In this document: positions 1-59,724 of the stretch, piece by piece | How the letters are laid out: the number at the start of each line of letters is the position of its first letter | How positions within the stretch are numbered: the first letter of the stretch is position 1 | Assembly (NCBI GenBank): GCA_000004985.1 | Contig: GG738913.1 | Reading direction: 5' to 3' (one strand) | Length of the DNA stretch: 64,000 bases | Source of the DNA: Naegleria gruberi | Lineage: Eukaryota | Translations under genes and position numbers: made by a program | Notes under the pieces: generated by a model | The model's database searches: none | Seen by the model: only the letters and a program-made list of their open reading frames with translations | What the model was told of the DNA's origin: nothing

Positions 1-1481
1 AAAATAATTTAATTAATTTATTAGAAAGAGATTTTAAACAAATAGAAGATTTACCTATAAATATTAAAATTATACCTGAATGTAAATATTCATATGGAAC
101 TAGTATTATTGTAATTCAATTAAAAATATTAAATTTTATTAAAAATATTAAAAATAATGAAATGATTAAATTTATTCCATATTTATTAAAACAATTTAAT
201 AATTTAATTGATAAAAATGTAAATAAAAATGTAAATATAGAACAAGTTAGATTACAAATACTAAGATCAATAATTTCAATTTTGGAATTAAATTCTACTA
301 TTATAGATATTAATAATATTTTAAATTTATTATTTAATTATTATAATTTAATGTTAAAAAATGAAAAGATTTATTTTTTTATTTTAATTGATAAAATATT
401 AAATTTAAATTATATTCCAAATATGGAAATTACTATAAAAATGTTTGAATCATTTATAAATGATTTAAAAAATGAAAATGATTTAATTTTTCCAATTAAT
501 AATTTAATTTCAATTTCTTCTATTGAATTATATAAAAATATAAAAAATATAATTATAAATTTATTTAAAAATGAAATTCCAATTAAATTTATTATTTTAT
601 TATTTGAAAAAGATTTTAATTATTTTAAAGAAATGATAAAAAATGAAATTGAAATTTTAACAAGAATATTAAATTATTTAAATGATTTAACAATAACAGA
701 TTTAGTAAATGAAACATTTATATTAAATAATTATCTATATATAGTAAAAATATTTGATAATATACCAATTAATGAAGAATTATTTAATTCAATTAATAAT
801 ATAATTAATATTTTACCAAAAACATTTCGTAGTTGTGTAATTGAAAATAATTGTATAGTACCATATTTAGAATGGTTAATTAAATTATATAATACTAAAA
901 AATTATATAATTATTCAATTGAATGTAAAAATGATATTACAATAACATTAGTATCATATTTAATTAATATGATATTAGATACCTATTGTTTAGAAATGTC
1001 TTATTTATTACATACTATTTTAATAATTGATATTTGTAATGAAGAAAATCCAAATTCATTATCTATTTTATTATCAAGAATTAATGAATTATCAAAAGAT
1101 TTATCTTGTATTGAATTGAGATGTTTAACATGTATGATTATTTATCCATATTGTTCTGATTTTTTATGTGATAAATTTGCATTTCTTAATTGTCAATTCA
1201 TTGAATTATTAAATATTAATGATTTTAGATTGGATTGGTTGATTTATTATTCTCTATCTTTTATTAGAGTTTTAGATGATTTAATGGAGAGAAGTAAATT
1301 TTGTAAAAGTAGAGTTTTTACAATTTTTGAATATTTGGAAAAATTATTTACTATAATATCATCATCAACAACATTATCAATGAATATGATGGATACAAAA
1401 TCATATCATGAAATTATTAGATTTAAAAGAAAATTAAATATTTATTTGGAGGAAAGTAATAGAGAAGAGATGATTTTATAA
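1..1481 (+). CDS. Hypothetical protein, 5'-truncated at the window edge. Extremely AT-rich ORF giving an I/N/L/K-rich helical-looking protein.
   Basis: The reading frame is open from base 3 through the TAA at 1479-1481 (more than 490 codons) in roughly 12% GC DNA. An ORF that long without stop codons cannot arise by chance at this composition. No recognisable domain. Confidence 0.45.
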   Translation, partial: NNLINLLERDFKQIEDLPINIKIIPECKYSYGTSIIVIQLKILNFIKNIKNNEMIKFIPYLLKQFNNLIDKNVNKNVNIEQVRLQILRSIISILELNSTIIDINNILNLLFNYYNLMLKNEKIYFFILIDKILNLNYIPNMEITIKMFESFINDLKNENDLIFPINNLISISSIELYKNIKNIIINLFKNEIPIKFIILLFEKDFNYFKEMIKNEIEILTRILNYLNDLTITDLVNETFILNNYLYIVKIFDNIPINEELFNSINNIINILPKTFRSCVIENNCIVPYLEWLIKLYNTKKLYNYSIECKNDITITLVSYLINMILDTYCLEMSYLLHTILIIDICNEENPNSLSILLSRINELSKDLSCIELRCLTCMIIYPYCSDFLCDKFAFLNCQFIELLNINDFRLDWLIYYSLSFIRVLDDLMERSKFCKSRVFTIFEYLEKLFTIISSSTTLSMNMMDTKSYHEIIRFKRKLNIYLEESNREEMIL

Positions 1482-1513
1482 AAAGAATGATGATTCATTG
1501 GATCCAATTATTT

Positions 1514-1834
1514 TTATAATACTGTCATAAAATTAAGATTAACCTCCTTTTTTGTTATATTGTTATTGTTGAAGTGTTTCTTGTTAATTAGTACTCTATA
1601 TTTTGACATATTGGATTTAAACTGTTTGCTGTTCCTGCTCCCTTTGCTGGTTGAGGTGGTTGAAATTTCACACTCAACAGTTTCATTCACACAATAGTGA
1701 TGATCATCTAATTGAACAAGCCTAAGATTTGGGTTGGATTGTGGTGTAATTTTATAAAGGAAATTGAGATTGACTTCCTTAATTAATTCTCTATCATTTT
1801 GTAATTCTTCACCCATAAATCTATTTACTATCAA
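1514..1834 (-). CDS. Hypothetical small protein. A short 5' exon around 1900-2000 is possible.
   Basis: A 106-codon ORF with normal coding composition (GC-richer than its surroundings) on the minus strand. No homology recognised. Confidence 0.25.
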   Translation of the reverse strand: MIVNRFMGEELQNDRELIKEVNLNFLYKITPQSNPNLRLVQLDDHHYCVNETVECEISTTSTSKGSRNSKQFKSNMSKYRVLINKKHFNNNNITKKEVNLNFMTVL

Positions 1835-2435: not shown

Positions 2436-3083
2436 TTAAAAACATACCATTCCAAATAAAATAATAAAAGGTAACCAAGTTTTCAATAGACCACTCATAC
2501 CATTAACATATTTACCATAAAAAAACATTAAAAATCCAATTTCAAATATAGAAATATTTCCATTTTTAAATTTCAATTGATTTAAACAATGTATAGTATA
2601 ATGATGACAATTCTGACAAAAGAAATTATACATTTTAGATCTAAAACATTTAGCACTACTCTTAATAGTTTGATCATAGTTTTTTAATTGTTCTTGATTT
2701 AATTGATTTTTAATATTTAAATATCGAGTTGGTTTTCCAAATGCAAAATCATCAATACTAATATAATAGGGTCCTGCAAAATCATGAATTATACCTTTTG
2801 AATTAGCAATACCCATATGTCCAATAAATGGTAATATCCATGTTATTAATGGTATTGGTGTCCATACAATACAATAGGGATATCTATCTATTGATGGATT
2901 TATTATTTCATTATTATTATTATTATTATTATTATTGTTATTATTATCATGTTCATATTGTTGTTGTTGTTGTTCATAATCATCATCATCATCATGTTCA
3001 TTATTCATATAATCATCCGAATCATCATTGTGATGATGTGTTGATTGAATAATTTCCTCCTCCGAGTCATCATATTGTTGCAT
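2436..3083 (-). CDS. TMEM222-like (DUF778) membrane protein with an H/D/Q/N-rich N-terminus, including a 12xN run.
   Basis: The motif HMGIANSKGIIHDFAGPYYISIDDFAFGKPTRYL matches the DUF778/TMEM222 core. A-rich context lies upstream of the ATG. Appears single-exon. Confidence 0.65.
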   Translation of the reverse strand: MQQYDDSEEEIIQSTHHHNDDSDDYMNNEHDDDDDYEQQQQQYEHDNNNNNNNNNNNNEIINPSIDRYPYCIVWTPIPLITWILPFIGHMGIANSKGIIHDFAGPYYISIDDFAFGKPTRYLNIKNQLNQEQLKNYDQTIKSSAKCFRSKMYNFFCQNCHHYTIHCLNQLKFKNGNISIFEIGFLMFFYGKYVNGMSGLLKTWLPFIILFGMVCF

Positions 3084-3298
3084 TTTTTTTAATATTTTAA
3101 TTTATATAACTTTCTTATTAGATATCTGATTTGCTTGTCAATTTGTTTCAAACAAGACAAAATTTAGAGATTTATGCCATTAGGAGAATGTTCATGCACA
3201 TGATCACATAGATCATAATTTTTTAATTTGTAACCAAAATATCAACTTGATTTATTCAGCAGATTTATAATTCCATGTTTCATAATAAAATGGTCCAT

Positions 3299-3467
3299 GG
3301 CTGTGTAGCTCAGATGGGAGAGCAAGGGTAGTACACTTCTGGCACGCATGTTCCATTGTGATAATAATGGTTTGTACCGCCTAGTATTGTGTCACTAGAG
3401 TTGTCTTTCGATACCTCATTCCCCCTGGTCACACGATCGAAACGTGTCGCATCCAATACTTTTTTTT
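3299..3467 (+). ncRNA. tRNA-like Pol III element. It has a tRNA 5' half, a T-arm-like hairpin, a T8 terminator and an insertion of about 85 nt. Possibly a tRNA with an oversized intron, a pseudogene or a tRNA-derived element.
   Basis: GGCTGTG-TA-GCTCAGATGGGAGAGC gives an acceptor/D-arm with a canonical A-box. The hairpin ACACG-ATCGAAA-CGTGT lies at 3431-3447. CGCATCC pairs with the 5' acceptor at 5 WC + 1 GU out of 7. A TTTTTTTT run at 3460-3467 is terminator-like. Confidence 0.3.
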
Positions 3468-3574
3468 CTCATATTGTAAACATTATCTTTTCAGTGAATT
3501 TAATTGGTTAGTACAAATCATCAGCTTAAGGTTGAGATTCCAATTCAAATCAAATTAAAATTCTTTTTAAAAAA

Positions 3575-4018
3575 ATGCAACAATCAAACAAACGCTCTCA
3601 AAGTACAACCAACCTTATTAATTTGATATTGTTGTTGTGTTGTTTGTGTTTATTTTCTCTCCTCACCATTGTTACTAAATGTAGTGAAACTAATTCCGAT
3701 CTTAAATTGAATACTGATTCATCGTGTGCTGCAGTGAGTTGTTTAGTAGGATCCTATTGTGAGAATGGAAAGTGTGTTCCAATATTGAATAATAATAATA
3801 ATAGGATAGTAGCAGTTGGAAGTGATGATTCATCGTGTGCTGCAGTGAGTTGTGTAACTGGTTCAATTTGTCAGAATGGAAAATGCATTGCAACCAATGT
3901 TGGTGTAATAATGGAATCGAAAAGAAATTCAACTGCTAATCAATTAGGTGATGGAAAATTCAAGTTGGAGCTTTTTTCAATTATTGCTTTGATGTTATTA
4001 ATGACTTTATTACTTTAA
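3575..4018 (+). CDS. Small secreted Cys-rich protein with two tandem modules and a probable GPI anchor.
   Basis: Signal peptide (LINLILLLCCLCLF...). The module DSSCAAVSC-x-G-x-C-x-NGKC is duplicated. The C-terminus is hydrophobic after G/S residues. Confidence 0.4.
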   Translation: MQQSNKRSQSTTNLINLILLLCCLCLFSLLTIVTKCSETNSDLKLNTDSSCAAVSCLVGSYCENGKCVPILNNNNNRIVAVGSDDSSCAAVSCVTGSICQNGKCIATNVGVIMESKRNSTANQLGDGKFKLELFSIIALMLLMTLLL

Positions 4019-4110
4019 CAATTTCTCTCTCACTTGATATTATTATTACTCTAATGTCTATCTAGATAAATTAAATTAATTTGTTAAGTTGTATTAAGGA
4101 AAACATAAAT

Positions 4111-7100
4111 TTACAAATTTAAATGTTGTTTTTGAATATTAATATAATGAGTGTATGGATTAACAGAAAGAGAATCCAAAGTTAATTTTCTATCCTTTAA
4201 ATCCTTCATACATTTAACATATAAATTAAAAACTTCATAATTATTGAATAAATGTTTGTCATAATTAATTGCCTTTCTTCTAATTAAATAATGTTGTTGT
4301 AAAAGTTTTTGATTATGATCTGGGAATGGAACATCAATAATTAAATCAATTTCACTTCCAATTTTACGTAAAATTTCAGATTCTTCTTCAAGTTTCAATT
4401 GAGATGCTAAACAAATACCATTAAATCTCATTAAAGATGTAGCAGATGACGTAGCAGATAATTCTTGTTGATCAATGAGTGGAACATATTGTTGTAATTG
4501 TAAAGTATGATATTTAACATTTGGTAATTGTTGAGATAATTTCTCACCAACATATGGAGTAACATAAATTGTAAATCTCAAATGTTGATATAAAATATAA
4601 ATGGATTGTAAAATATGATTAATTAAATCCATATTTGTACGTGTTGAATGTGGGAATGAAGCAATTAAAACTGATTTTCTATCTGTATCTATATTTGGTA
4701 AATTAGGGAAGGCACTCATCATTCCTTTTAAGAAGGCATCTCTAACTGTTTGTCCAAAACATGCTACTTCACCTGTACTTGCCATTTCAACTCCCAACTT
4801 TGGATCACAATCTAATAATCTTCTAAATGAAAACATTGGAGCTTTACATCCATAGAATGATTTGGAAAATCTCTTTCTTTGAATAATTTCAAATTCTTTT
4901 GTAATAATACTATCTATCATTATCATCAGTTTTACCATTACTATTATTTTGTAATGATGATGTATTAGAATGTGTAATGGATTCAACTTGTTCACGTTTC
5001 ATTGTAATTTGTTCAAGTAAATTCATTTGTTGATAATAATTTCTAGTTGGAACATTACTACCTGGTAAGCTTGTGATGGTATTTGAATTGACCAATGATG
5101 ATGCTAATGATGAAGAAGAAGATGGTAAATTGAAATGATGAGTAAAGATTCTAGTAGCCAATGCAATAAAATCCAAATCTAAAGTCTTACTAATGAATGG
5201 GAATGATCTACTTGCTCTCAAATTACATTCAATAACACGTAATCTCTTTGATAATTTCAAATATAAAGATTCAGATTCAAAACTATCATCATATCCATCT
5301 AGTGAATTTGTTGAGAATGATTGAGTCATTCCTTGTTGTTGTCCATGTTCTTCTTCTTCTTCTTGATCATCATCATGAATACATTCATTATCAAATAAGA
5401 ATTGCATATTAAATGGACCACTAATTGATAAAGATTTAACAATCATTGATGCCTTTTCTCTAATTAAATCTTGAATATCAAAACTCAATGAATAAGGTGG
5501 ACAAATTAGAGTAGCATCACCAGAGTGAGTACCTGCTCTTTCAACATGTTCACTAATTGCATCAATAATAATTTCACCATTCATTGCAACACCATCAATT
5601 TCAATTTCTTTAGCATTTTCATAAAATTTAGAAATGACAACTGGATGTTCTTTAGAAACGTCAGCAGCCATATATAATTGTTGTAATAATTCAGAATCTG
5701 AATAAGCAACATTCATTGCAGCACCTGATAAAACATATGAAGGTCTAATTAAAACAGGATATTGAACCTTATTAGCAAAAATTAAAGCATCTTCAATAGT
5801 AATTAAATTAGCCCATTCAGGTTGATAAACCAATTTGTCACCTGTCTTTTCATTAACAAGTGAATCTAAGAGTTGTGAAAATTTAGAACGATCTTCACAT
5901 TTATCAATTGAATCTGAACTAGTTCCTAAAATTTTAACATGACATTGTTTATCCAAAGGTAAAACAATATTATTAGGTTGTTGACCACCAACACTAACAA
6001 TAACACCTTGTGAATGTTCCAATTCATAAATATCTAAAACTCTTTCTAAACTTAATTCTTCAAAATATAAACGATCAGGTTCATCATAATCAGTTGAAAC
6101 AGTTTCAGGATTATAATTAATCATTATAGTCTTGTAATTTAATCTCTTCAATTCTCTAACACTCATCACACCACAATAATCAAATTCAACACTACTACCA
6201 ATTCTATAAACACCACTTCCTAATACAATTATACCTTCATCATTAAATGAAACATCATGATGATAACAATGATCTGGATAAATCATTTCACCTCCTTCCT
6301 TTCCAATACTATTAATACCTGCATTATAGGTTGTATAGAGATAATTTGTTTGTGCTGGATATTCTGCTGCTAATGTATCAATTTGTTTAACAATTGGTTC
6401 AATCTTATATTGATACTTTCTAATAAATCTAACCATTAATTCTTTATCAATCTTACTTAATTTAGGTGGATTTTTATAGGTATCTTTATATTGTGGTTGA
6501 GTATTATTAGTATTATTATTAGTAGTATTATTAGTATTATCAGTAGTAGTATTATTACTATTATTATTAGTATTAGTATTATTATTGAAACATGATAATT
6601 GATATGGGAATTGAACTTGATTCTTTAAAATTGCTTGTAAAAATTCATGATATAACAATGAAGGTAAACTTGAAGCAATTTGTAAATCAGAGAAACCTTG
6701 TTGTTTGGAAAGTAAAAGTAATGGATATGGAAGTTCAGGTAATGAATTCAATAATTTACCAATTCCAACCAATGCCTTCTTAGTTTGAATAATATTTTGT
6801 AATTTGTACAAGAACCAACGATCAATTTGAGTAAATTGATGAATTTGGTCAACTGTCATTTCAAAATGTTCCATAGCAAGTGAAATAGCAAAGATACGTT
6901 GATCAGTTGGATGAGTTAATTCTCTAATAATCTTTTGTTTGATATCTTCTTTTGGTGAAACTTGTGGTTGTAAAGCAAATGGATTAGTGACACTACTATT
7001 AAATAAGTGAGAATGAGAACTAGATCCAAAACTACCATAATGAGTTTGACCAAAGCTTCCAAAATGAGTAGAACCAGATCCAAAACTACCATAATTAGTA

Positions 7101-10100
7101 TTAGCAGAACCAACACTATTATGAGATGAACCAGAGTGATGGTGATATTGATACTGTTGATGGTGATGTTGGTGATGATTTGAAGAAGCAGTAGTAGTAT
7201 TAGTATTAGCAGCAGTATTAGAAGAAGAAGAATATTGTTTCATCAACTTTTCCAAATCAAATGAAGAATTGGCAGAATCAAATCCTCTATATGAAGTATC
7301 AACCATTCTAATAGCTTTTTGAATTGCTTCTTCAAAATTTCTACCAATGGCCATCACTTCACCAACACTTTTCATTGCTGATCCAATGACAGTTGAAACA
7401 CGAGTGAATTTCTTCAAATCCCAACGTGGCATTTTAACAACACAATAATCTAATGCAGGTTCAAAACAAGCAATAGTTTCCTTAGTAACAGAATTCTTAA
7501 TATCAATCAATTCCATTCCCAATGAAAGTTTAGCAGCAACAAATGCAAGTGGATAACCAGTTGCTTTTGAAGCCAAAGCTGAACTTCTTGATAAACGAGC
7601 ATTAACTTCAATGATAACATATTCCTTACTGTATGGATTCAATGCATATTGAATATTACATTCACCAACAATACCCAAATGTCTAATAACCTTAATAGCA
7701 GCAGTTCTCAACATGTGATATTCATCATTATTTAATGTTTGTGATGGTGCAACAACAATTGATTCACCTGTATGAATACCAACTGGATCAAAGTTTTCCA
7801 TATTACAAACTGTAATACAATTATCATTACAATCACGAACAACTTCATATTCAACTTCTTTCCATCCCTTAACTGATTTTTCAACAAGAATTTGAGGTGA
7901 ACTTGAAAGTGCTTGAGTTGCCAATTCTCTCAATTCACGTTCATCATTGGCAAATCCACTTCCTAATCCACCCAATGCAAATGCTGCTCTAATAATTACT
8001 GGATAACCAATGTGAGAGGCTGCTAAAATTGCCTCTTCAACATTATCACATGCCTTTGAATCAGCAATTGGTTGTGAAATTTCACGCATCTTTTGATTGA
8101 AAATATCACGATCTTCAGTATCAATAATTGATTGAACAGGTGTACCTAATACTCTACAATTCAATTCTTCTAAAACTCCTGATTTGTGTAATTGAACACC
8201 ACAATTTAATGCAGTTTGACCACCAAATGATAAAAGTAAACCATCTGCATTCTCCTTCTTAATGACTTTTTCAACAAAATCAGGTGTAACTGCCCCGAAA
8301 TAAACTCTATCAGCCAATTCTTTACATGTTTGAACTGTAGCAATATTTGGATTAACTAAAATTGTATAAATTCCTTCTTCTTTAAGTGCTTTAATAGCTT
8401 GTGATCCTGAATAATCAAATTCACCTGCTTGACCAATTTGTAAACCACCTGAACCTAAAATAATAACCTTCTTTGGTAATACCTTCTTCTTTTCATCAAG
8501 AGTTGAGAGTTTCTTTTCTTCTTGAATAATTGATTGATTAAAAATACTCTTCTTCATTAAAGATTCTTGTTGTTTTAAAATTGGAGTTGAAATATCTGAA
8601 GTATCTTCAACAGATTTCAATAATTGATTGAATTTAGTTTTCATATTCTTATGATGTTTGATAAATACTTTGCTATATTTAGATTCAAAATTTTTAACAC
8701 GATGTAACTTGTTTGAAATCTTTAATTTGATCAAATCAATAAATTGATCAAATAAAAAGAAAGTATCACTTGGTCCACCTTTAGCTTCTGGATGAAATTG
8801 AGCTGTAAAAATTGGTAAATTCAAACAATAAACACCTTCATTAGATTGATCATTGGCATTAATGAAATATGGTTTGAAATTTGAAGGTAAAGTTTGATTA
8901 TCAATAGCATAACCATGATTTTGTGAAGTGATAAAACATTTACGTGTTAATTGATCAATAACAGGTTGATTATGACCTCTATTACCAAATGGTAATTTAT
9001 AAACACTTGCACCAATAGCTTTACCAACCAATTGATTACCTAAACAAATACCAAAAATAGGAATAATTGGAACTTGTTGTTGTTGTTGAACTAATGAAAT
9101 ATATTCAGATAAAATTGAAATAGTTTCATGGAAATTATTTGGATTACCAGGTCCATTACTAATAAAAATACCATCAATATTAGTATTATTAGTATTATTA
9201 GTATTATTATTATTAGTATTATTATCATTGTTGGTATTATTATTGTTTGAATTATTAACATCTAATTCTAACCAATTATAATTATATGGAACAACTTTCA
9301 ATTCAACATCTCTTTTAACAAGTTCACGAATAATATTATATTTCATACCACAATCAATAGCAATAACTTTAAACTTATTACCTTTACCATAAATAGTAAC
9401 ATCTTTACAAGTTACTTTCTTAATAATTTCAACATCTTGACCTGGATCATACCATTGTAAAGGAGCAAGACCTTTAATAGAAAGTTCATGTTCATAATTA
9501 ATATTTGTAACAATTCTTGCTAACATTGATTTTTCATCTCTCAATTTCTTTGTAATTGCTCTCGTATCAATGTGATATAGAGCTGGAATATTATATTCTT
9601 GTAACCAACGATGAAGTGAACAAATTGCTTCATAATGTGAATAATTATGTGAATAATCTTGAACTATTAAACCTCTAATATGAATCTTATCACTTTCTAA
9701 TTTTGGAAGCAATCCAAATTCATCTAAATTCTTATTACCATTATTAGAAACTGTTGTTTTGAAATTTGGTGCACCATAATTACCAACAAGTGGAAAAGTT
9801 AAAACTAAAATTTGACCATGATAAGAAGGATCAGTCAATGATTCAGGATAACCAACCATTGCAGTTGTAAAAACACATTCACCACTCACAGAAAATGGTG
9901 AATTCCAATTGGAATCATTTTCAATTAAACACTTATTAGCTCCAAATAATTTACCATAATATCTTGTACCATCTTGTAATTCTAAATAACCATCAAACAT
10001 ATCAGATGGTGATGGTTGATTATTATTCATCATTTTACCATTATTATTATTATTATTAGGATTAGGAATGGTAGTAGTGGTTGTAGTAGTATTTGTAGCT

Positions 10101-10366
10101 GTAACAAGTGTAGAATTGGATGATGATTCAGATACTGTTGGTGAGGTTGTTTGATTCAGAGAGTTGGAATTTGAATCATCGGACAATAATAAAGAAGCAG
10201 CACTCAATAAACTATTCAATGGATTATTGGTGGTTGAAGCAGAATGACCTGTTACTGCTGCTCCTCCTGTGGTGGTTGTAGAATTGGATGATGGATTGGT
10301 GGTGGTATTAGCCTTATTATTGGCATAAACCATGTAGGATTTGTTAGAAGGTGATGGAGAGTACAT
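4111..10366 (-). CDS. Carbamoyl-phosphate synthetase, glutamine-hydrolysing: fused GATase + large subunit + C-terminal MGS-like domain, with no DHOase/ATCase. N/T-rich insertions. At least two coding segments are joined across 4910-5070.
   Basis: Small-subunit N-domain and GATase signature (FGICLGNQL). Two ATP-grasp halves are present ([22 protein letters not shown] and [21 protein letters not shown]; [17 protein letters not shown]). The STGEV motif is followed by an MGS-like fold in the 4111-4995 frame. The likely start is the ATG at 10366 (aaaaaagaATG). The two ORFs are in different frames. Confidence 0.8.
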
Positions 10367-11491
10367 TCTTTTTTGAATTGACAATTGTTGATTAATGACA
10401 ATGAAAGACAAATACAAACATTTAACTACTGTTTTTCAACAAAATTGTGTATTAGTTTCTAGAGTGTATTGTTTTTAGAGATGCTCAAGAGAAAAAGAAG
10501 TACTTCTCGTGCTCTTTTTTTCGAGAGGGTTTTATCACTCAATCCAACCCTGAGCGAATTTATAGTCCTCAACTACCCACCTAATATCTTCCCAACCATT
10601 GCAATTAGCCTCAACATGTTCATTGAAGAATTGTGCAGCTTTCTTATTTTACATTGTAATCCTGTGTGTGGGAGAAAAGCTAACGTTCGGATTTCAAAGT
10701 GGTGGTCTGAGGTAATTTTTCAAAGGTTCCTCTGCTAAAGAATCCAAGAGCTTGTTTGGAAAAAGAGATGTTAGTTGGTGGGTACCACAAGAACAACATG
10801 AGGTTGGTACATGTGAACGAAAGAGAAATAACCATCATCAGAATGTTTCTCATTAAAAAGAAAATATGAATAAAACAATGTCTATCAATATTGTGGAAGG
10901 AAATGTAGAATTTTGAACTGTTTGTTGAGAAATATATTACCAGAAAAAAACGACATTTTCTATCAAGGGAGGACACCAACAATGATTACAACGGTGATAT
11001 TTAATCGGAAGATAATGGATTAGGCTGACTTTCCTTAAAAATGAGGAGAGTTTATATTTGAACAACTACGATTTTGAAACTCAAACCCTGCATATTACCT
11101 TTGTGATAAGTATGTACTACACTCAGAAGAAGAAATGATAACACTGAGAAGGCCTACGAAAACTCAAACCTAAGGAAAGTACGCTTCAAGCAAGGGAGAC
11201 TATCATTGTAGAACAACTATTTGTAATTGGATCCTTAACTCTCTAATTTCCAACTTATTCTGATATGAATTGACGTTTGTACAAAAGCTAATTACATTCA
11301 CAAAGTATAGTAAGATCCTAACACTGAATTGTAATTCACCAACATGGAGTTGAGTGTGACCAATGTTCCACTGTCAATCATCAATCATTAACCAATAATA
11401 ACTGAATTCAATAACCCAAAATTAAGGCGGGAAACTAAAAATTTACAGTTTATAGACGTTATAAAAATCCTTAGAAAAAAATTTAAAAAAA

Positions 11492-12617
11492 ATGAGCAAA
11501 CATTCAAGCTCTTCTTCATCACTTTCCCATCATTCATCAAGGAATTTATCCCATTCAAGTAGTAGTAGTAATACAAATAATAGTGGAGGGAATTCTTCTG
11601 GGACTGTAAGCTCTAAGGATGAAAATTCTAGTAGGGATGATGTTTATGATGAACAAATGACTGAAAATCCGAACGCTTATTATTGTGCCTTGATTAATAA
11701 GTGGTTGGATCAATATACAACAACAGTTCATAGAAGAGTTTCATCGATAACGGATTGTTCTCCATCACTGTTTATAATTCTATATGAATCCATTAGTAAA
11801 GACAATCCGAATACAAATCCTAAGCAATACCCTAAGTTTATTAGAGACAAGACATTAACTATATCTCAAAATCAATACAATCTGGTGGAATTAATAACAT
11901 ACCTCAAAGAAAAGTACAAACATTCATTCATATTGAGGAATATTGAAATACATAAATTAATAGATAGAGAACCCTATGAAATTATTAAATTCCTTGATTG
12001 GTTTATTCAATTAGAAAAGAAGAGAGTTCATGCCTATATTCCCCAATTGGATGATCCTTCATTCCAATCACAAGAAACACCAAAGGATGAAACCTTCTCA
12101 ATCAAACACAGAAAGAAAATGCTCAAAATTCAGAGAGATAAATTAGAGGAAGAACATAATTCATTCATTCACAAAACAATGATTAATGCACAAGCTAAGG
12201 AAGAATCTCTCATGAGACATTATTTATCACACAGTAATAGAATTGAAAAGGAAAATTTAGTTTTAACTGTAAATAGTTTAAAGAAGAAAGAACGTGATAT
12301 GCAATGTAAATTACAAGATAGAAAGGATTCTATTTCTAATTTGTAAGTTGTGTGATGATGGATTCTAATAATATTTAATCTAAAATGAAAGTTATAAGGA
12401 TCAAATGAATATTATTAGGGATAAGTTAGATTCACAAACTAAGTTAGATAAACATGTTTCAAGACAATTATTCTTGGACTTTGATAGATTACAAAGAGAA
12501 TTTTACACTCACAAACAAAAAGAATTGGAACTTAGAAGATTGAAATACATGTCAAAGAGAGAAAAGGAACAATTTCAAATTCATTCAAAGCTTAAAACCC
12601 TTCTAGATCAAAACTAA
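11492..12617 (+). CDS. Hypothetical coiled-coil protein with a Ser-rich N-terminus; two exons.
   Basis: join(11492..12342,12392..12617). The intron is 49 nt, from GTAAGT at 12343 to AAAG at 12391. The splice joins ...DSISN-FYKDQMNIIRDKL... in frame. Confidence 0.5.
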
Positions 12618-12670
12618 GCTATTTAATTCAACATTTATTAAATATTTATTTACTTTGTTTACAATAAAAA

Positions 12671-13420
12671 ATGCAACAACATGTCATTCCTTCATCACCG
12701 TTAGCCACCAGCAGTAGTAGTGGTGGTGCTAATCACACTTTTACATCTCCGAACTCAACGACACAAGTTAAAATCCATCGATTTACATTATCTTCTCTCT
12801 TGAGATGTATGATGGAGTCATCGAGTGATGTTCATGGATTATTACTCGGATCAACTTGTATTCTTGATGATTTTATAATTTTAAATAATTATTATTGGGA
12901 TAAAGAATTAAATACAATACTTGCTAACAATAAGAATATATCAATTTGTGGTTACTTTAAATTTAGACCTGACACTAATTTAAATACCATGACTATGAAC
13001 GAAATGAATTTAGTTTACAATTTGATGAGAGCATTAAATTGTGATAAATTCTTGTTTGGATTATTCGGAAATCATGCATCATCATCACCATCACTTGTAG
13101 AATATAATTATTCATTTAGAAATATTAATATAACAACATCATCAATATCTAGTCTTCCTATTAATTTATCATCTCCTCTTCGTGTAGAAATTGAAAATCT
13201 AATTAATACTAAAAATGTAAATTTCAAATATAGAACCTCATCAAAGATTCATGCCTTTACACAAACCAATGAAAAATACAAGAATGTAATTCAATCATGT
13301 CAAGCTAGTGTACAACAATTAGAAGTTTATTCAAAAGATGCTTTGGAAGAATTAATATCCCTTTCAGAACAAGTTAAAAAGACAAGATTACAAATACAGG
13401 AATTAAAAAAAGATTTCTAA
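12671..13420 (+). CDS. Abraxas/ABRO1 (FAM175)-like MPN-minus domain protein with a C-terminal coiled coil.
   Basis: VHGLLLG and CGYFKFRP...FLFGLF resemble the MPN-like core of BRISC/BRCA1-A subunits. A C-terminal heptad-repeat region is present. Confidence 0.4.
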   Translation: MQQHVIPSSPLATSSSSGGANHTFTSPNSTTQVKIHRFTLSSLLRCMMESSSDVHGLLLGSTCILDDFIILNNYYWDKELNTILANNKNISICGYFKFRPDTNLNTMTMNEMNLVYNLMRALNCDKFLFGLFGNHASSSPSLVEYNYSFRNINITTSSISSLPINLSSPLRVEIENLINTKNVNFKYRTSSKIHAFTQTNEKYKNVIQSCQASVQQLEVYSKDALEELISLSEQVKKTRLQIQELKKDF

Positions 13421-13430
13421 TACTATTGAA

Positions 13431-16400
13431 CTATTTCAATGAATTCTTATCATCACCTCTAACAAGACCAATTAATTTTGAAATTGACAAACTTCTCTTT
13501 GGTCTTGATCCAGATTTTTCATTAATTCCGACAATAGGTCCTTCAGGCTCTTCATTTTGTTCACGTTCTTCTTTTGCCTTGAATGCCTTTTCTCCTGTTA
13601 CTCTATAAACTGAAGGAGATGGAGGACGAGAGTTACCACCACTTGATGTAACTGTTGGAGTAGGATAACTAACTGTATTATGAGTGTTATTATTATTAAT
13701 TGAAGAAGAATTTGAGGAATGTGTTGCTGGTAGTGTTGGATAGAGATTACCAGTTGAGGGAACAGTGTTGAAATTTCTAGGTCTATTTCTCACTAATGCA
13801 GATTGTTGATTAACTGATTGACTGCTATTAAATGGAGGGGGCTGATTGGTTGGTTGCTGTGTAGACTGTTGACTACTAGTGAAATTATTGTTAAATGAGT
13901 TAACTGGTGGTTGTTGTTGTGTTTGTTGAGGAAGTGAGACTCTATTGTTCTGCATTGGAGATGGTGGAAGAGAACCTTGTCTTGGTTGGAAACTTCCTGT
14001 TGATTGAGGTCTTGAATAAGAAGAGGGAGGAATATTGACCATTGTTGGTGAATCCAAACCTCTTTGATTTACACTTGAACTTGGTTGAACATTTTGTGTA
14101 TTAATACTCAATCTATTTCCTGTTGTTGAATTTGGAACTGAGTATTGTGATCTTTGATTATTAATTGGAATGTTATTAGTAGTATATAGGTGTGGATTAG
14201 TTGAATTGTAAGAATTGGATTGTTGATAAGATCCAGTATTACTTGGTTGATTTGTTGCAGTAGTGGATGGATAGTATTCATATGGATTATTGTTTGAATA
14301 AGTTTTAGTTTCTTCTCTCATTCCACCAATACTATTATTAAATGGATTACTAGAATAAGTTGATGAATTACTTTGAGAAGTTACTGGTCTACTACTTGGC
14401 AACTGTTGATTCATTTGATAATTACTGGAAATTTGTTGAGAAAGAGTTGTTTGTTGATTATATTGAGGTGGTGTAACTGTTGGGGTACTAGGTCTTACAG
14501 GAGAGAATGTGTTAGAAAGCGGAGGAGGAGTCGAATAGGCAGAATTAACTGGTGTTGATCTTACTGAACTAGTAGTACTACCACTGTGAGGAGTCGAATT
14601 AAACGTTGGTGTTTTTTGAGGAGTAGCATACGAAGGAGTTGTACTCACAGGAGTGGATGGTCTAATCGGGTTTGAATTCATAACTGGTGTAGATCCAACA
14701 CTGCTTGGTGTTTTGTTTTGTAGTGGTGTTGATGCATTACTTAATGGTGGAGTACTTGTAATGGATGAAATAGTACTGGATGGTTGAACAGTTCGAGGTA
14801 CGGGTCCTGAAGAGTTTTGAGAAACTGAAGGAGCAGTATTGTTGGAAACAGTTGCAGTAGTTGAAAGAGTTGGTGATGAGGTTGGACTAATATTTGTTTG
14901 ATTGTGTGGTGGCGGTACATTCACAGCAAGTGATGACAATACAGCTGATGGTGTTTTCACGTTGGACATATTACTACTACTTGTTTGATTTGTGTTACTA
15001 CCCAATGGAATTGAAATATTATTCGCCTCAAAGAAGTTTGAAGAGTTTGAAGCATTGGGCTTTGGTGATTTTGGCAAGCTTTCTTGACCAAAGTTTACAA
15101 TAAAATGTAATTTCAATGCTTCCAATTCATTTTCCAAACTTGTAACTTTCTTTTTGAGTTCTATATTATCTCTGAAAGTATCCAAAGATTTCTTCTTTGT
15201 ACTTGAAAGTTCAATCTCTGAAATTTCAAGTTGTTGCTTGTAACTCTTCATGTCCTTCTCCAATGTATCAACAAAATGTTGTAAATAGTCTTGAGTTTTA
15301 CAATTCTCTTGAAGTTTCTTAATTTCCAAATCTCTTTCCTCCAATAGTGATGTAAGACGAGCAATTTGTTCATCAAGTTGATTCTTTTCCTTTTCTCGTA
15401 TGCTAATTTCCCTATCGAAATCCTCTTTCCACATATTGTACATAGCTGACATGTTGTCATTCAAAGTCTTAATTTGCATTTCATAATTTTCCTTTTCAGT
15501 TCTTGTTGAGCTTAACTGTTGTTGCATATTTTGCATTTCCTCCATCTTTTGTTGAATCACCTTGGACGCTTCTTCCTTTGCCATCTTCTCCTTCTGGTAT
15601 TCTCTTTCAAAGTGTTCATTTACTTGTTTGAAACTTTCAATTTGTTTGTTCTGGTCTGAAATCATTTCTTCTGCTCTTCTTCTTGAACTTTCCTCATTAA
15701 TTGTCTTTTGTTCTAAAAGTTGATTATAATTCATCAAATCGTGAATTTGAAGTTCTCTTCTCTTTGATTCTGCCTCAATATTATTCTTGCTTGAGATAAT
15801 TTCCTCCAATTGTAAACTCATACTGGCTGTTTCTTGTTGAAGTAAATAGAGAGTTTCTTCCTTGCTTTTCGATTCTTCCTCTTGCATTCTTTTTCTTTCC
15901 TCTTCAATTTGTAATAGTTCTTGAAGCTTTGCTCTTTCTTCTTCCATTTGTCTGATTCTTTCTTCGTGATCCCTTTTTTCTTTTTCAATATCTTGAAGCC
16001 TAGCTTCTAGTGATTTGTTGGTAACCATAGAATCAGTCAAGTCTGACATGATTCTTTCCAACTCCTTAACTTCTTCCTCTGTTTCTTCCTTTTCAACTTG
16101 GGTGTTACTTTGGTTGGTGAGTTTGTCTTTCAGCATGGCAAGCTCACTTTGTAAAGTTTCCAATTCAGTTTGATATTTCATAATAAGAGCATTATCACAT
16201 TCACTATTAACAGTTGGTTTGATTGAAATCTTTTGAGCATTACTTCCAAATTCTAGTGTTCTCTTCGTTTCCTTTAATTTTACTGGATCTGGTGAGATTG
16301 CACAAACGACAGCTACTCTTGCATTTCCACCAAGTGAGTCTCCAAGAATTCTTGTGAGTTTTGAATTACGGAAGGATGTAACTCTTCAATGATATTAGAT

Positions 16401-59471: not shown

Positions 59472-59724
59472 NNNNNNNNNNNNNNNNNNNNNNNNNNNNN
59501 NNNNNNNNNNNNNNNNNNNNNNNNNNNNNNNNNNNNNNNNNNNNNNNNNNNNNNNNNNNNNNNNNNNNNNNNNNNNNNNNNNNNNNNNNNNNNNNNNNNN
59601 NNNNNNNNNNNNNNNNNNNNNNNNNNNNNNNNNNNNNNNNNNNNNNNNNNNNNNNNNNNNNNNNNNNNNNNNNNNNNNNNNNNNNNNNNNNNNNNNNNNN
59701 NNNNNNNNNNNNNNNNNNNNNNNN
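59472..59724. other. Assembly gap (a run of 253 N).
   Basis: Literal n characters in the sequence. Not biological. Confidence 0.95.

Follow-up and report, generated by a model that had tools for sequence, protein, structure and literature searches.

The 64,000-nucleotide stretch of the Naegleria gruberi genome analyzed here (contig GG738913.1 of assembly GCA_000004985.1; below, the window) carries a gene that very probably encodes a stand-alone, fused carbamoyl-phosphate synthetase (CPS). Two long minus-strand open reading frames (ORFs) span positions 10417 to 4111: the first, ORF1 (4910-10417), runs for 1835 codons from a TTG to an in-frame TAG at 4910-4912, and the second, ORF2 (4111-4995; 294 codons), lies in the +1 frame relative to it and closes with the stop codon of the gene, TAA 4111-4113. 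Deletion of one base at ~4915, within GATAGATAG, gives a continuous protein of 2084 residues (4111-10366, minus strand). The ATG at 10364-10366 is taken as Met1, rather than the TTG at 10417, because the N-terminus that it opens is conserved in Naegleria fowleri, whose protein begins MYPSSSPSNKSF; the NCBI model P0001 begins at the same codon. A preliminary description, drawn from the sequence without database searches, had treated 4111-10417 as one minus-strand gene. The domain content upholds this view, but the gene lies in two ORFs separated by a +1 frame change near 4915, and it starts at 10366. NCBI likewise annotates two "predicted proteins" here: P0001 (1818 residues, ending at the TAG of 4910-4912), which a protein search returned as 99% identical to the joined translation, and P0241 (224 residues, starting MASTGEV). 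The CPS gene is thus already present in public databases, unnamed and split in two; no paper describing a Naegleria CPS turned up in our literature searches.

The polypeptide is ordered as a small-chain domain, a glutamine amidotransferase (GATase), a first synthetase half (half A), an oligomerization domain, a second synthetase half (half B), and a tail resembling methylglyoxal synthase (MGS). Pfam recovers the CPSase small-chain N-terminal domain at residues 129-286 (9509-9982; PF00988, E 7.9e-40) and the class I GATase domain at residues 337-545 (8732-9358; PF00117, E 5.5e-47); the catalytic Cys of the latter sits in GICLGNQL (9029-9052), and its His and Glu in FHPE (8786-8797). Half A, the pre-ATP-grasp and ATP-grasp unit that forms carboxyphosphate and carbamate, occupies residues 629-1030 (7277-8482; CPSase_L_D1 plus D2) and aligns to human CPS1 residues 409-813 with 562.8 bits. 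The oligomerization or integrating domain, CPSase_L_D3, follows at residues 1146-1234 (6665-6931; PF02787, E 4.7e-22). Half B, the carbamate-phosphorylating ATP-grasp, is divided by the frame break. Its larger part, at residues 1318-1744 (5135-6415), contains the second stretches of CPSase_L_D1 and CPSase_L_D2, which each match ORF1 twice (E 3.3e-87 and 3.3e-104), as well as a conserved 13-residue motif at 5195-5233, and aligns to human CPS1 residues 922-1272. The end of this ATP-grasp, at residues 1828-1876 (4738-4884), is read in the other frame; it carries two 10-residue motifs, one of them at 4765-4794, and keeps 22 of the 24 near-universally conserved columns that fall after the break. 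The Pfam search returns the domains that had been predicted for the translation with the exception of MGS, and the motif positions agree with the earlier proposal that a glutaminase with CLGNQL, both ATP-grasp halves, and an MGS-like tail share one minus-strand locus.

Among 449 columns that are at least 95% conserved in 116 non-Naegleria CPSs, N. gruberi keeps 437, its orthologues keep 435-439, and most of the 12 departures are common to N. fowleri and Willaertia. An 18-residue and a 13-residue motif of the synthetase halves are present. The GATase retains its Cys-His-Glu triad, and, since Naegleria has GICLGN where human CPS1 has GISTGN, its sequence is consistent with a working glutaminase. 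Read from the family, glutamine would be hydrolyzed in the GATase and the ammonia channeled to half A, where bicarbonate would be phosphorylated to carboxyphosphate and carbamate formed; half B would then phosphorylate carbamate to carbamoyl phosphate, with the MGS-like tail transmitting allosteric signals that modulate activity. The product would feed a separate aspartate carbamoyltransferase (ATCase) for pyrimidine synthesis, and possibly ornithine carbamoyltransferase (OTCase) too. Taken together, we consider it very likely that the locus is the stand-alone glutamine-dependent CPS of N. gruberi, a protein of ~2084 residues with the six-part order above, and that its product passes to a separate ATCase; the frame break is probably an error.

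The C-terminal tail (residues 1877-2084; 4114-4737) is divergent. With a threshold as loose as E<=10, Pfam still finds no MGS domain in this region of the N. gruberi, N. fowleri, and Willaertia proteins, and the alignment shows the canonical LYAT-GTA segment altered in N. gruberi. The tail of the Acrasis orthologue, which aligns to the other tails at 35% identity, does match Pfam MGS (8.8e-7). A profile of the four Naegleria-clade tails compared with a profile of eleven canonical CPS tails gives an hhalign probability of 97.9% (E 4.6e-13, 137 columns). When the tail is modeled with AlphaFold2 (pLDDT 80.3), its top Foldseek match is the C-terminal region of human CPS1 (5dou; E 2.8e-7), followed by methylglyoxal synthases with target TM-scores up to 0.75. 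Profile comparison and predicted fold thus agree with the MGS tail initially proposed, as a divergent member of that domain family.

The gene ends with this tail. The stop codons of the N. fowleri orthologue, of a relative known from an ENA metagenome, and of the Willaertia orthologue fall at the equivalent residue, the latter two proteins ending ...NPYSRYLDVQASDLRL and ...HPYSHYLRLQSKDLNC. A tblastn search of the 64 kb with the C-terminal 800-1000 residues of CAD and URA2 proteins gave matches limited to the CPS/MGS part, at 4165-5203, and the ATCases of N. fowleri and Willaertia match nowhere in the window; exons for dihydroorotase (DHOase) or ATCase below 4111, which could have spliced onto this gene, are accordingly absent from the 64 kb. 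A convergent ORF of 147 residues (3575-4018, plus strand) ends 92 nt from the CPS stop codon, and the next minus-strand ORF (2436-3083) belongs to the RTE1/TMEM222 family. The early claim that the gene stops without DHOase or ATCase, among unrelated downstream neighbors, agrees with these searches and with the shared stop of the orthologues.

Comparison with relatives places the CPS in a lineage where it is a stand-alone enzyme. In a protein search taken to its best 120 matches, the top homologues after P0001 are those of N. fowleri (P0002; 1893 residues, 73% identity) and the ENA metagenomic relative (P0003; 1863 residues), with further homologues in Willaertia magna (P0004; 2173 residues, 65%) and Acrasis kona (P0008; 1487 residues). 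The CPS is stand-alone at all six heterolobosean loci compared: the window, N. fowleri, the ENA relative, Willaertia, Acrasis, and a more distant metagenomic relative from JGI. N. fowleri, the ENA relative, and Willaertia each have a gene for a carbamoyltransferase of ~330 residues on the strand opposite the CPS gene, starting from a point ~0.9-1.3 kb upstream of it. These head-to-head pairs occupy 6068-7069 (-) and 8001-13682 (+) in N. fowleri (L001/L002), 5711-6703 (-) and 8001-14522 (+) in Willaertia magna (L003), and 560-1534 (-) and 2609-8200 (+) in the ENA relative (L004). The paired enzyme carries STRT, HPTQ, RLQKERF, and HPLPR motifs, which we take to mark an ATCase and not an OTCase. 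N. gruberi itself has an ATCase gene on a different scaffold: P0122, a protein of 335 residues that is 73% identical to the relatives' orthologue and named aspartate carbamoyltransferase by UniRef, lies on a scaffold of 245,038 bp, whereas the CPS lies on one of 236,320 bp. Outside the CPS gene, the window shows no synteny with the N. fowleri, Willaertia, and ENA loci, and upstream of the N. gruberi CPS there is no ATCase remnant. The pairing is also absent from Acrasis and the JGI relative; it is a Naegleria and Willaertia feature that N. gruberi has lost. Where present, it may represent a bidirectionally regulated pyrimidine gene pair. Because ATCase adjoins CPS head-to-head in three relatives, a pyrimidine role is suggested for the N. 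gruberi enzyme, and this adjacency offers circumstantial support for it.

In a neighbor-joining tree of 42 sequences (1370 well-occupied columns, 200 bootstraps; euglenozoan and bacterial sequences outside the set), the heterolobosean CPSs form one clade in 200/200 replicates, outside CAD plus URA2 (184/200) and outside the group of animal CPS1 and stramenopile stand-alone CPS (200/200). All non-heterolobosean groups are at similar distances from the N. gruberi protein (0.60-0.68). Since the heterolobosean clade falls outside both groups in this tree, the N. gruberi CPS is neither a truncated CAD nor a CPS1. The stand-alone architecture is the norm for Heterolobosea. The preliminary description had regarded it as a departure from the CAD-type enzyme expected in amoebozoans; this expectation does not apply, as Naegleria belongs to Heterolobosea, within Discoba. 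CPS, ATCase, and DHOase are encoded by separate genes in Euglenozoa, another discoban group, and CAD is a feature of Amoebozoa and Metazoa (PMC7052976). Because Euglenozoa have pyr1, pyr2, and pyr3 as separate genes, the Naegleria architecture is expected rather than anomalous; N. gruberi has the fused CPS and separate ATCase (P0122) of a discoban stand-alone pyr1 system, in a comparison that covered these two enzymes.

Several known systems share parts of this organization. The likeness to apicomplexan and kinetoplastid CPSII that had been suggested at the outset is sound as regards the fused, stand-alone GATase-CPS. The CPSII of kinetoplastids (pyr1 of Trypanosoma cruzi and Leishmania), which are also Discoba, is a stand-alone fused GATase-CPS with separate ATCase and DHOase genes (PMC7052976), although the Naegleria protein is ~500-600 residues longer owing to its inserts, and its tail is too divergent for Pfam. 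The T. cruzi pyr genes are clustered (Gao et al. 1999, cited in PMC9512073), and this clustering resembles the ATCase-CPS pairing of N. fowleri and Willaertia. Stand-alone CPSs of stramenopiles (oomycetes, diatoms) have the same fused architecture at ~1500 residues and are among the top matches, but they group with animal CPS1 by neighbor-joining, are free of the Naegleria inserts, and carry an MGS domain of the canonical Pfam type. The CAD and URA2 proteins of animals, fungi, and amoebozoans contain a homologous GATase-CPS-MGS module, ~50% identical over the conserved parts, and continue into DHOase (or a DHOase-like domain) and ATCase; the Naegleria protein, by contrast, ends, its ATCase is a separate gene, and the clades are apart. 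The CPSII of Apicomplexa (Plasmodium falciparum, Toxoplasma gondii), an unrelated lineage, likewise fuses GATase and CPS and lacks DHOase and ATCase. Apicomplexan CPSII is also said, in work attributed to Flores et al. in 1994 and to Fox and Bzik, to carry large lineage-specific low-complexity inserts.

The frame break is the one unusual feature of the locus. Shared residues are found in the ORF1 frame up to ...ITMKR and then in the ORF2 frame, so the switch lies within ~4897-4990, flanked by two conserved 12-residue segments, one in each frame. ORF2 is open throughout its 294 codons, and N. gruberi and N. fowleri share 76.8% identity ahead of the break and 74.8% beyond it. In N. fowleri, in the ENA relative, and in Willaertia, the orthologue passes through this region as one ORF with neither intron nor interruption (length = 3 x residues + stop). 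As independent N. gruberi sequence across the break, the protein search gave just the NCBI model P0241, and two metagenome scans gave no relatives. Because the three close orthologues are intact and conservation beyond the break matches that elsewhere in the gene, a one-base assembly error is the most likely explanation; we consider it probable that the break is such an error or an allelic indel. The real product of a locus with a one-base error or allele-specific indel at ~4915 would be the full-length enzyme.

A clearly less probable explanation is that the genome is correct and that a very short intron is spliced out, so that the mRNA encodes the full-length enzyme. In-phase GT-AG pairs that restore the frame do occur at the junction, with lengths of 82 nt (4995-4914, GTGAAC...GATAG), 46 nt (4941-4896, GTAATG...AAAAG), and 40 nt (4935-4896, GTAAAA...AAAAG), and the 40-nt version keeps a Glu seen before Y/F in the orthologues. 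Candidate short introns of ~43-55 nt occur elsewhere in the window as well. However, GT-AG pairs are expected by chance in an 83-nt interval, all three close orthologues are intronless here, and no GTAAGT or GTATGT donor is found at the junction, the donors of the candidates being of neither kind. Each candidate also has a cost in protein sequence: ITK(E), the counterpart of FTKE in Willaertia, is lost in the 40- and 46-nt versions, and the 82-nt version destroys the Arg of a conserved (K/Q)LR / MKR motif and drops the open hydrophilic stretch in the ORF1 frame. A separate splice model with its donor at 5061 and acceptor at 4895 was rejected, as it removes a 12-residue segment conserved in all orthologues. 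The candidate spliceosomal introns elsewhere were seen in a survey of the window limited to GTAAGT-like donors, which is illustrative only; they measure ~55 nt (12344-12399, plus strand) and ~43 nt (59023-58981, minus strand), with GTAAGT/GTATGT donors and AG acceptors, and join adjacent ORFs.

It is unlikely that the break is a real mutation in the sequenced strain, leaving either a young pseudogene or a truncated protein of 1818 residues, with pyrimidines salvaged from rich medium. In favor of a mutation, the break stands in the public assembly, and the annotation respects it with the two models P0001 and P0241; the strain sequenced is NEG-M, according to a GenBank record cited in PMC11613528. 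NEG-M is grown axenically in rich medium, in which selection for pyrimidine synthesis could be relaxed. The truncated protein would stop short of the last part of the second ATP-grasp and have no regulatory tail. Against this possibility, the 6.2 kb contain no other lesion, and with ORF2 fully open and as conserved as the rest of the gene, inactivation could only have happened very recently; a lone indel is more likely to come from a single-base assembly error. Defined media for growing N. gruberi are also not known to need added pyrimidine.

The break aside, the enzyme could be of an arginine or urea-cycle type (CPS1/CPSIII-like or CPA-like) rather than the pyrimidine enzyme, an assignment that the preliminary description had entertained and that we regard as improbable. 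Human CPS1 (5dou, 5dot, 6uel) is the best match of the Naegleria CPS among solved structures, with 1307 bits over all domains and the same domain order including the MGS-like domain; many of the top matches in sequence databases are automatically named "arginine-specific" or "ammonia"; and Naegleria has an OTCase (PMC5052871). However, human CPS1 is an ammonia-using, N-acetylglutamate-dependent enzyme whose glutaminase is inactive, with Ser in place of Cys (GISTGN), and the Naegleria protein retains the Cys (CLGNQL) along with its His and Glu. It also falls outside the clade of CPS1 and stramenopile CPS in 200/200 replicates, three relatives carry its gene head-to-head with that for ATCase, and Naegleria reportedly has an incomplete urea cycle (PMC8296547). 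The arginine-type assignment is therefore not supported, although one CPS may feed both the pyrimidine and the arginine branches.

Two further explanations fare worse. It is very improbable, although conceivable from the sequence, that the break is real and bypassed at expression, by programmed +1 frameshifting at AGA-TAG-T or by a non-consensus intron of 40-46 nt, so that N. gruberi would make full-length, regulatable CPS in a controlled step; the ORF1 stop codon does lie four codons ahead of the point where a conserved 12-residue segment resumes in the +1 frame. RNA-seq data for this species exist (ENA PRJEB23822; PMC6142364). That the locus is a truncated CAD pseudogene, or that DHOase/ATCase exons splice on downstream, has nothing but the frame break in its favor and is ruled out for practical purposes by the absence of DHOase/ATCase similarity from the whole window, the convergent gene ending 92 nt from the CPS stop codon, the equivalent stop of the close orthologues, the tree position outside CAD plus URA2, and the separate N. 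gruberi ATCase gene.

Several points nonetheless weigh against the interpretation of the locus as a full-length stand-alone pyrimidine CPS interrupted by an error. The nature of the frame break is inferred from sequence, and frame-restoring GT-AG pairs (40, 46, and 82 nt) exist. The evidence for a pyrimidine role comes from the adjacency of the two genes in relatives, and the pair is broken in N. gruberi itself. The N. gruberi genome may have a second CPS or a CAD at another locus, the search having covered the best 120 matches; of the other pyrimidine genes, the one sought in this genome was that for ATCase. The tree is by neighbor-joining only, with kinetoplastid and bacterial sequences outside its set. 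Finally, because the tail is too divergent for Pfam, its ligands and effectors cannot be inferred.

For enzymology and evolution these results carry little weight: stand-alone fused CPSII is known in kinetoplastids, apicomplexans, and stramenopiles, and Heterolobosea now joins them. Their value for curation is more direct, as the two unnamed N. gruberi "predicted proteins" belong in one model once the break is checked. The conserved divergent ATCase-CPS pair of N. fowleri and Willaertia is a modest instance of clustered pathway genes in a free-living eukaryote. By analogy with the CPSII of other parasites, the N. fowleri orthologue, with its clade-specific inserts and divergent tail, is a plausible drug-target candidate.

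Much of the length of the N. gruberi protein lies in sequence added to the family core. The Naegleria/Willaertia clade carries extra sequence at fixed sites, usually longest and of low complexity in N. gruberi; the lineage has accumulated inserts at these sites, and N. gruberi has enlarged them into long low-complexity tracts. An N-terminal extension rich in Ser, Thr, and Asn (residues 1-122; 10001-10366) precedes the small-chain domain; it is absent from CAD and Acrasis, amounts to only ~15 residues in CPS1, and occurs in N. fowleri and Willaertia, where its sequence varies. A 25-residue Asn/Thr insert lies inside the GATase (residues 368-392; 9191-9265) and is absent in N. fowleri. Between half A and the oligomerization domain is a His/Gln/Ser/Gly-rich insert (residues 1044-1139; 6950-7237) of 96 residues; N. 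fowleri has 23 residues at this site, Willaertia has 51, and CAD, CPS1, and Acrasis have 0-2. An Asn/Thr-rich insert of 71 residues follows the oligomerization domain (residues 1236-1306; 6449-6661), with 26 residues in N. fowleri, 57 in Willaertia, and none in CAD, CPS1, or Acrasis. Half B contains an acidic insert (residues 1661-1706; 5249-5386) and, ahead of its last part, a variable Ser/Asn-rich linker (residues 1745-1827; 4885-5134), within which the +1 frame change falls, and the tail has a short insert relative to the family core (residues 1967-1985). The count of three poly-Asn/Thr tracts and a His/Gln-rich tract interrupting the synthetase, given in the preliminary description, is thus roughly right, but the inserts are more numerous, and one Asn/Thr tract lies in the GATase.

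The linker between GATase and synthetase (residues 558-631; 8474-8695) is ~65 residues longer than in most other CPSs. N. gruberi, N. fowleri, and Willaertia have in common a stretch of it that includes MKKSIF, and neither Acrasis nor CPS1 has this stretch; an Acipenser CAD entry has unrelated extra sequence at the same site. Unlike the other inserts, which are variable and of low complexity, this linker is strongly conserved over much of its length (NFE...), and it may act as a structural or regulatory element specific to the clade.

The surroundings of the gene offer a few further observations. The convergent 147-residue ORF at 3575-4018 has hydrophobic N- and C-termini, with a signal or anchor at the former, two repeated Cys-rich units (SSCAAVSC..G..C.NGKC), and no significant Pfam family; its hydrophobic C-terminus suggests a glycosylphosphatidylinositol (GPI)-anchor-like signal. 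Upstream of the CPS gene, at 11492-13420 on the plus strand, where three relatives carry ATCase, lie Ser-rich ORFs of 284, 70, and 249 residues, the first without a Pfam match; two or more of these ORFs probably belong to a single gene as exons flanking the candidate intron at 12344. Toward the far end of the window, a run of 253 N at 59472-59724, either a gap in the assembly or masked sequence, lies inside an apparent long minus-strand coding region, marking the window as draft-quality scaffold.

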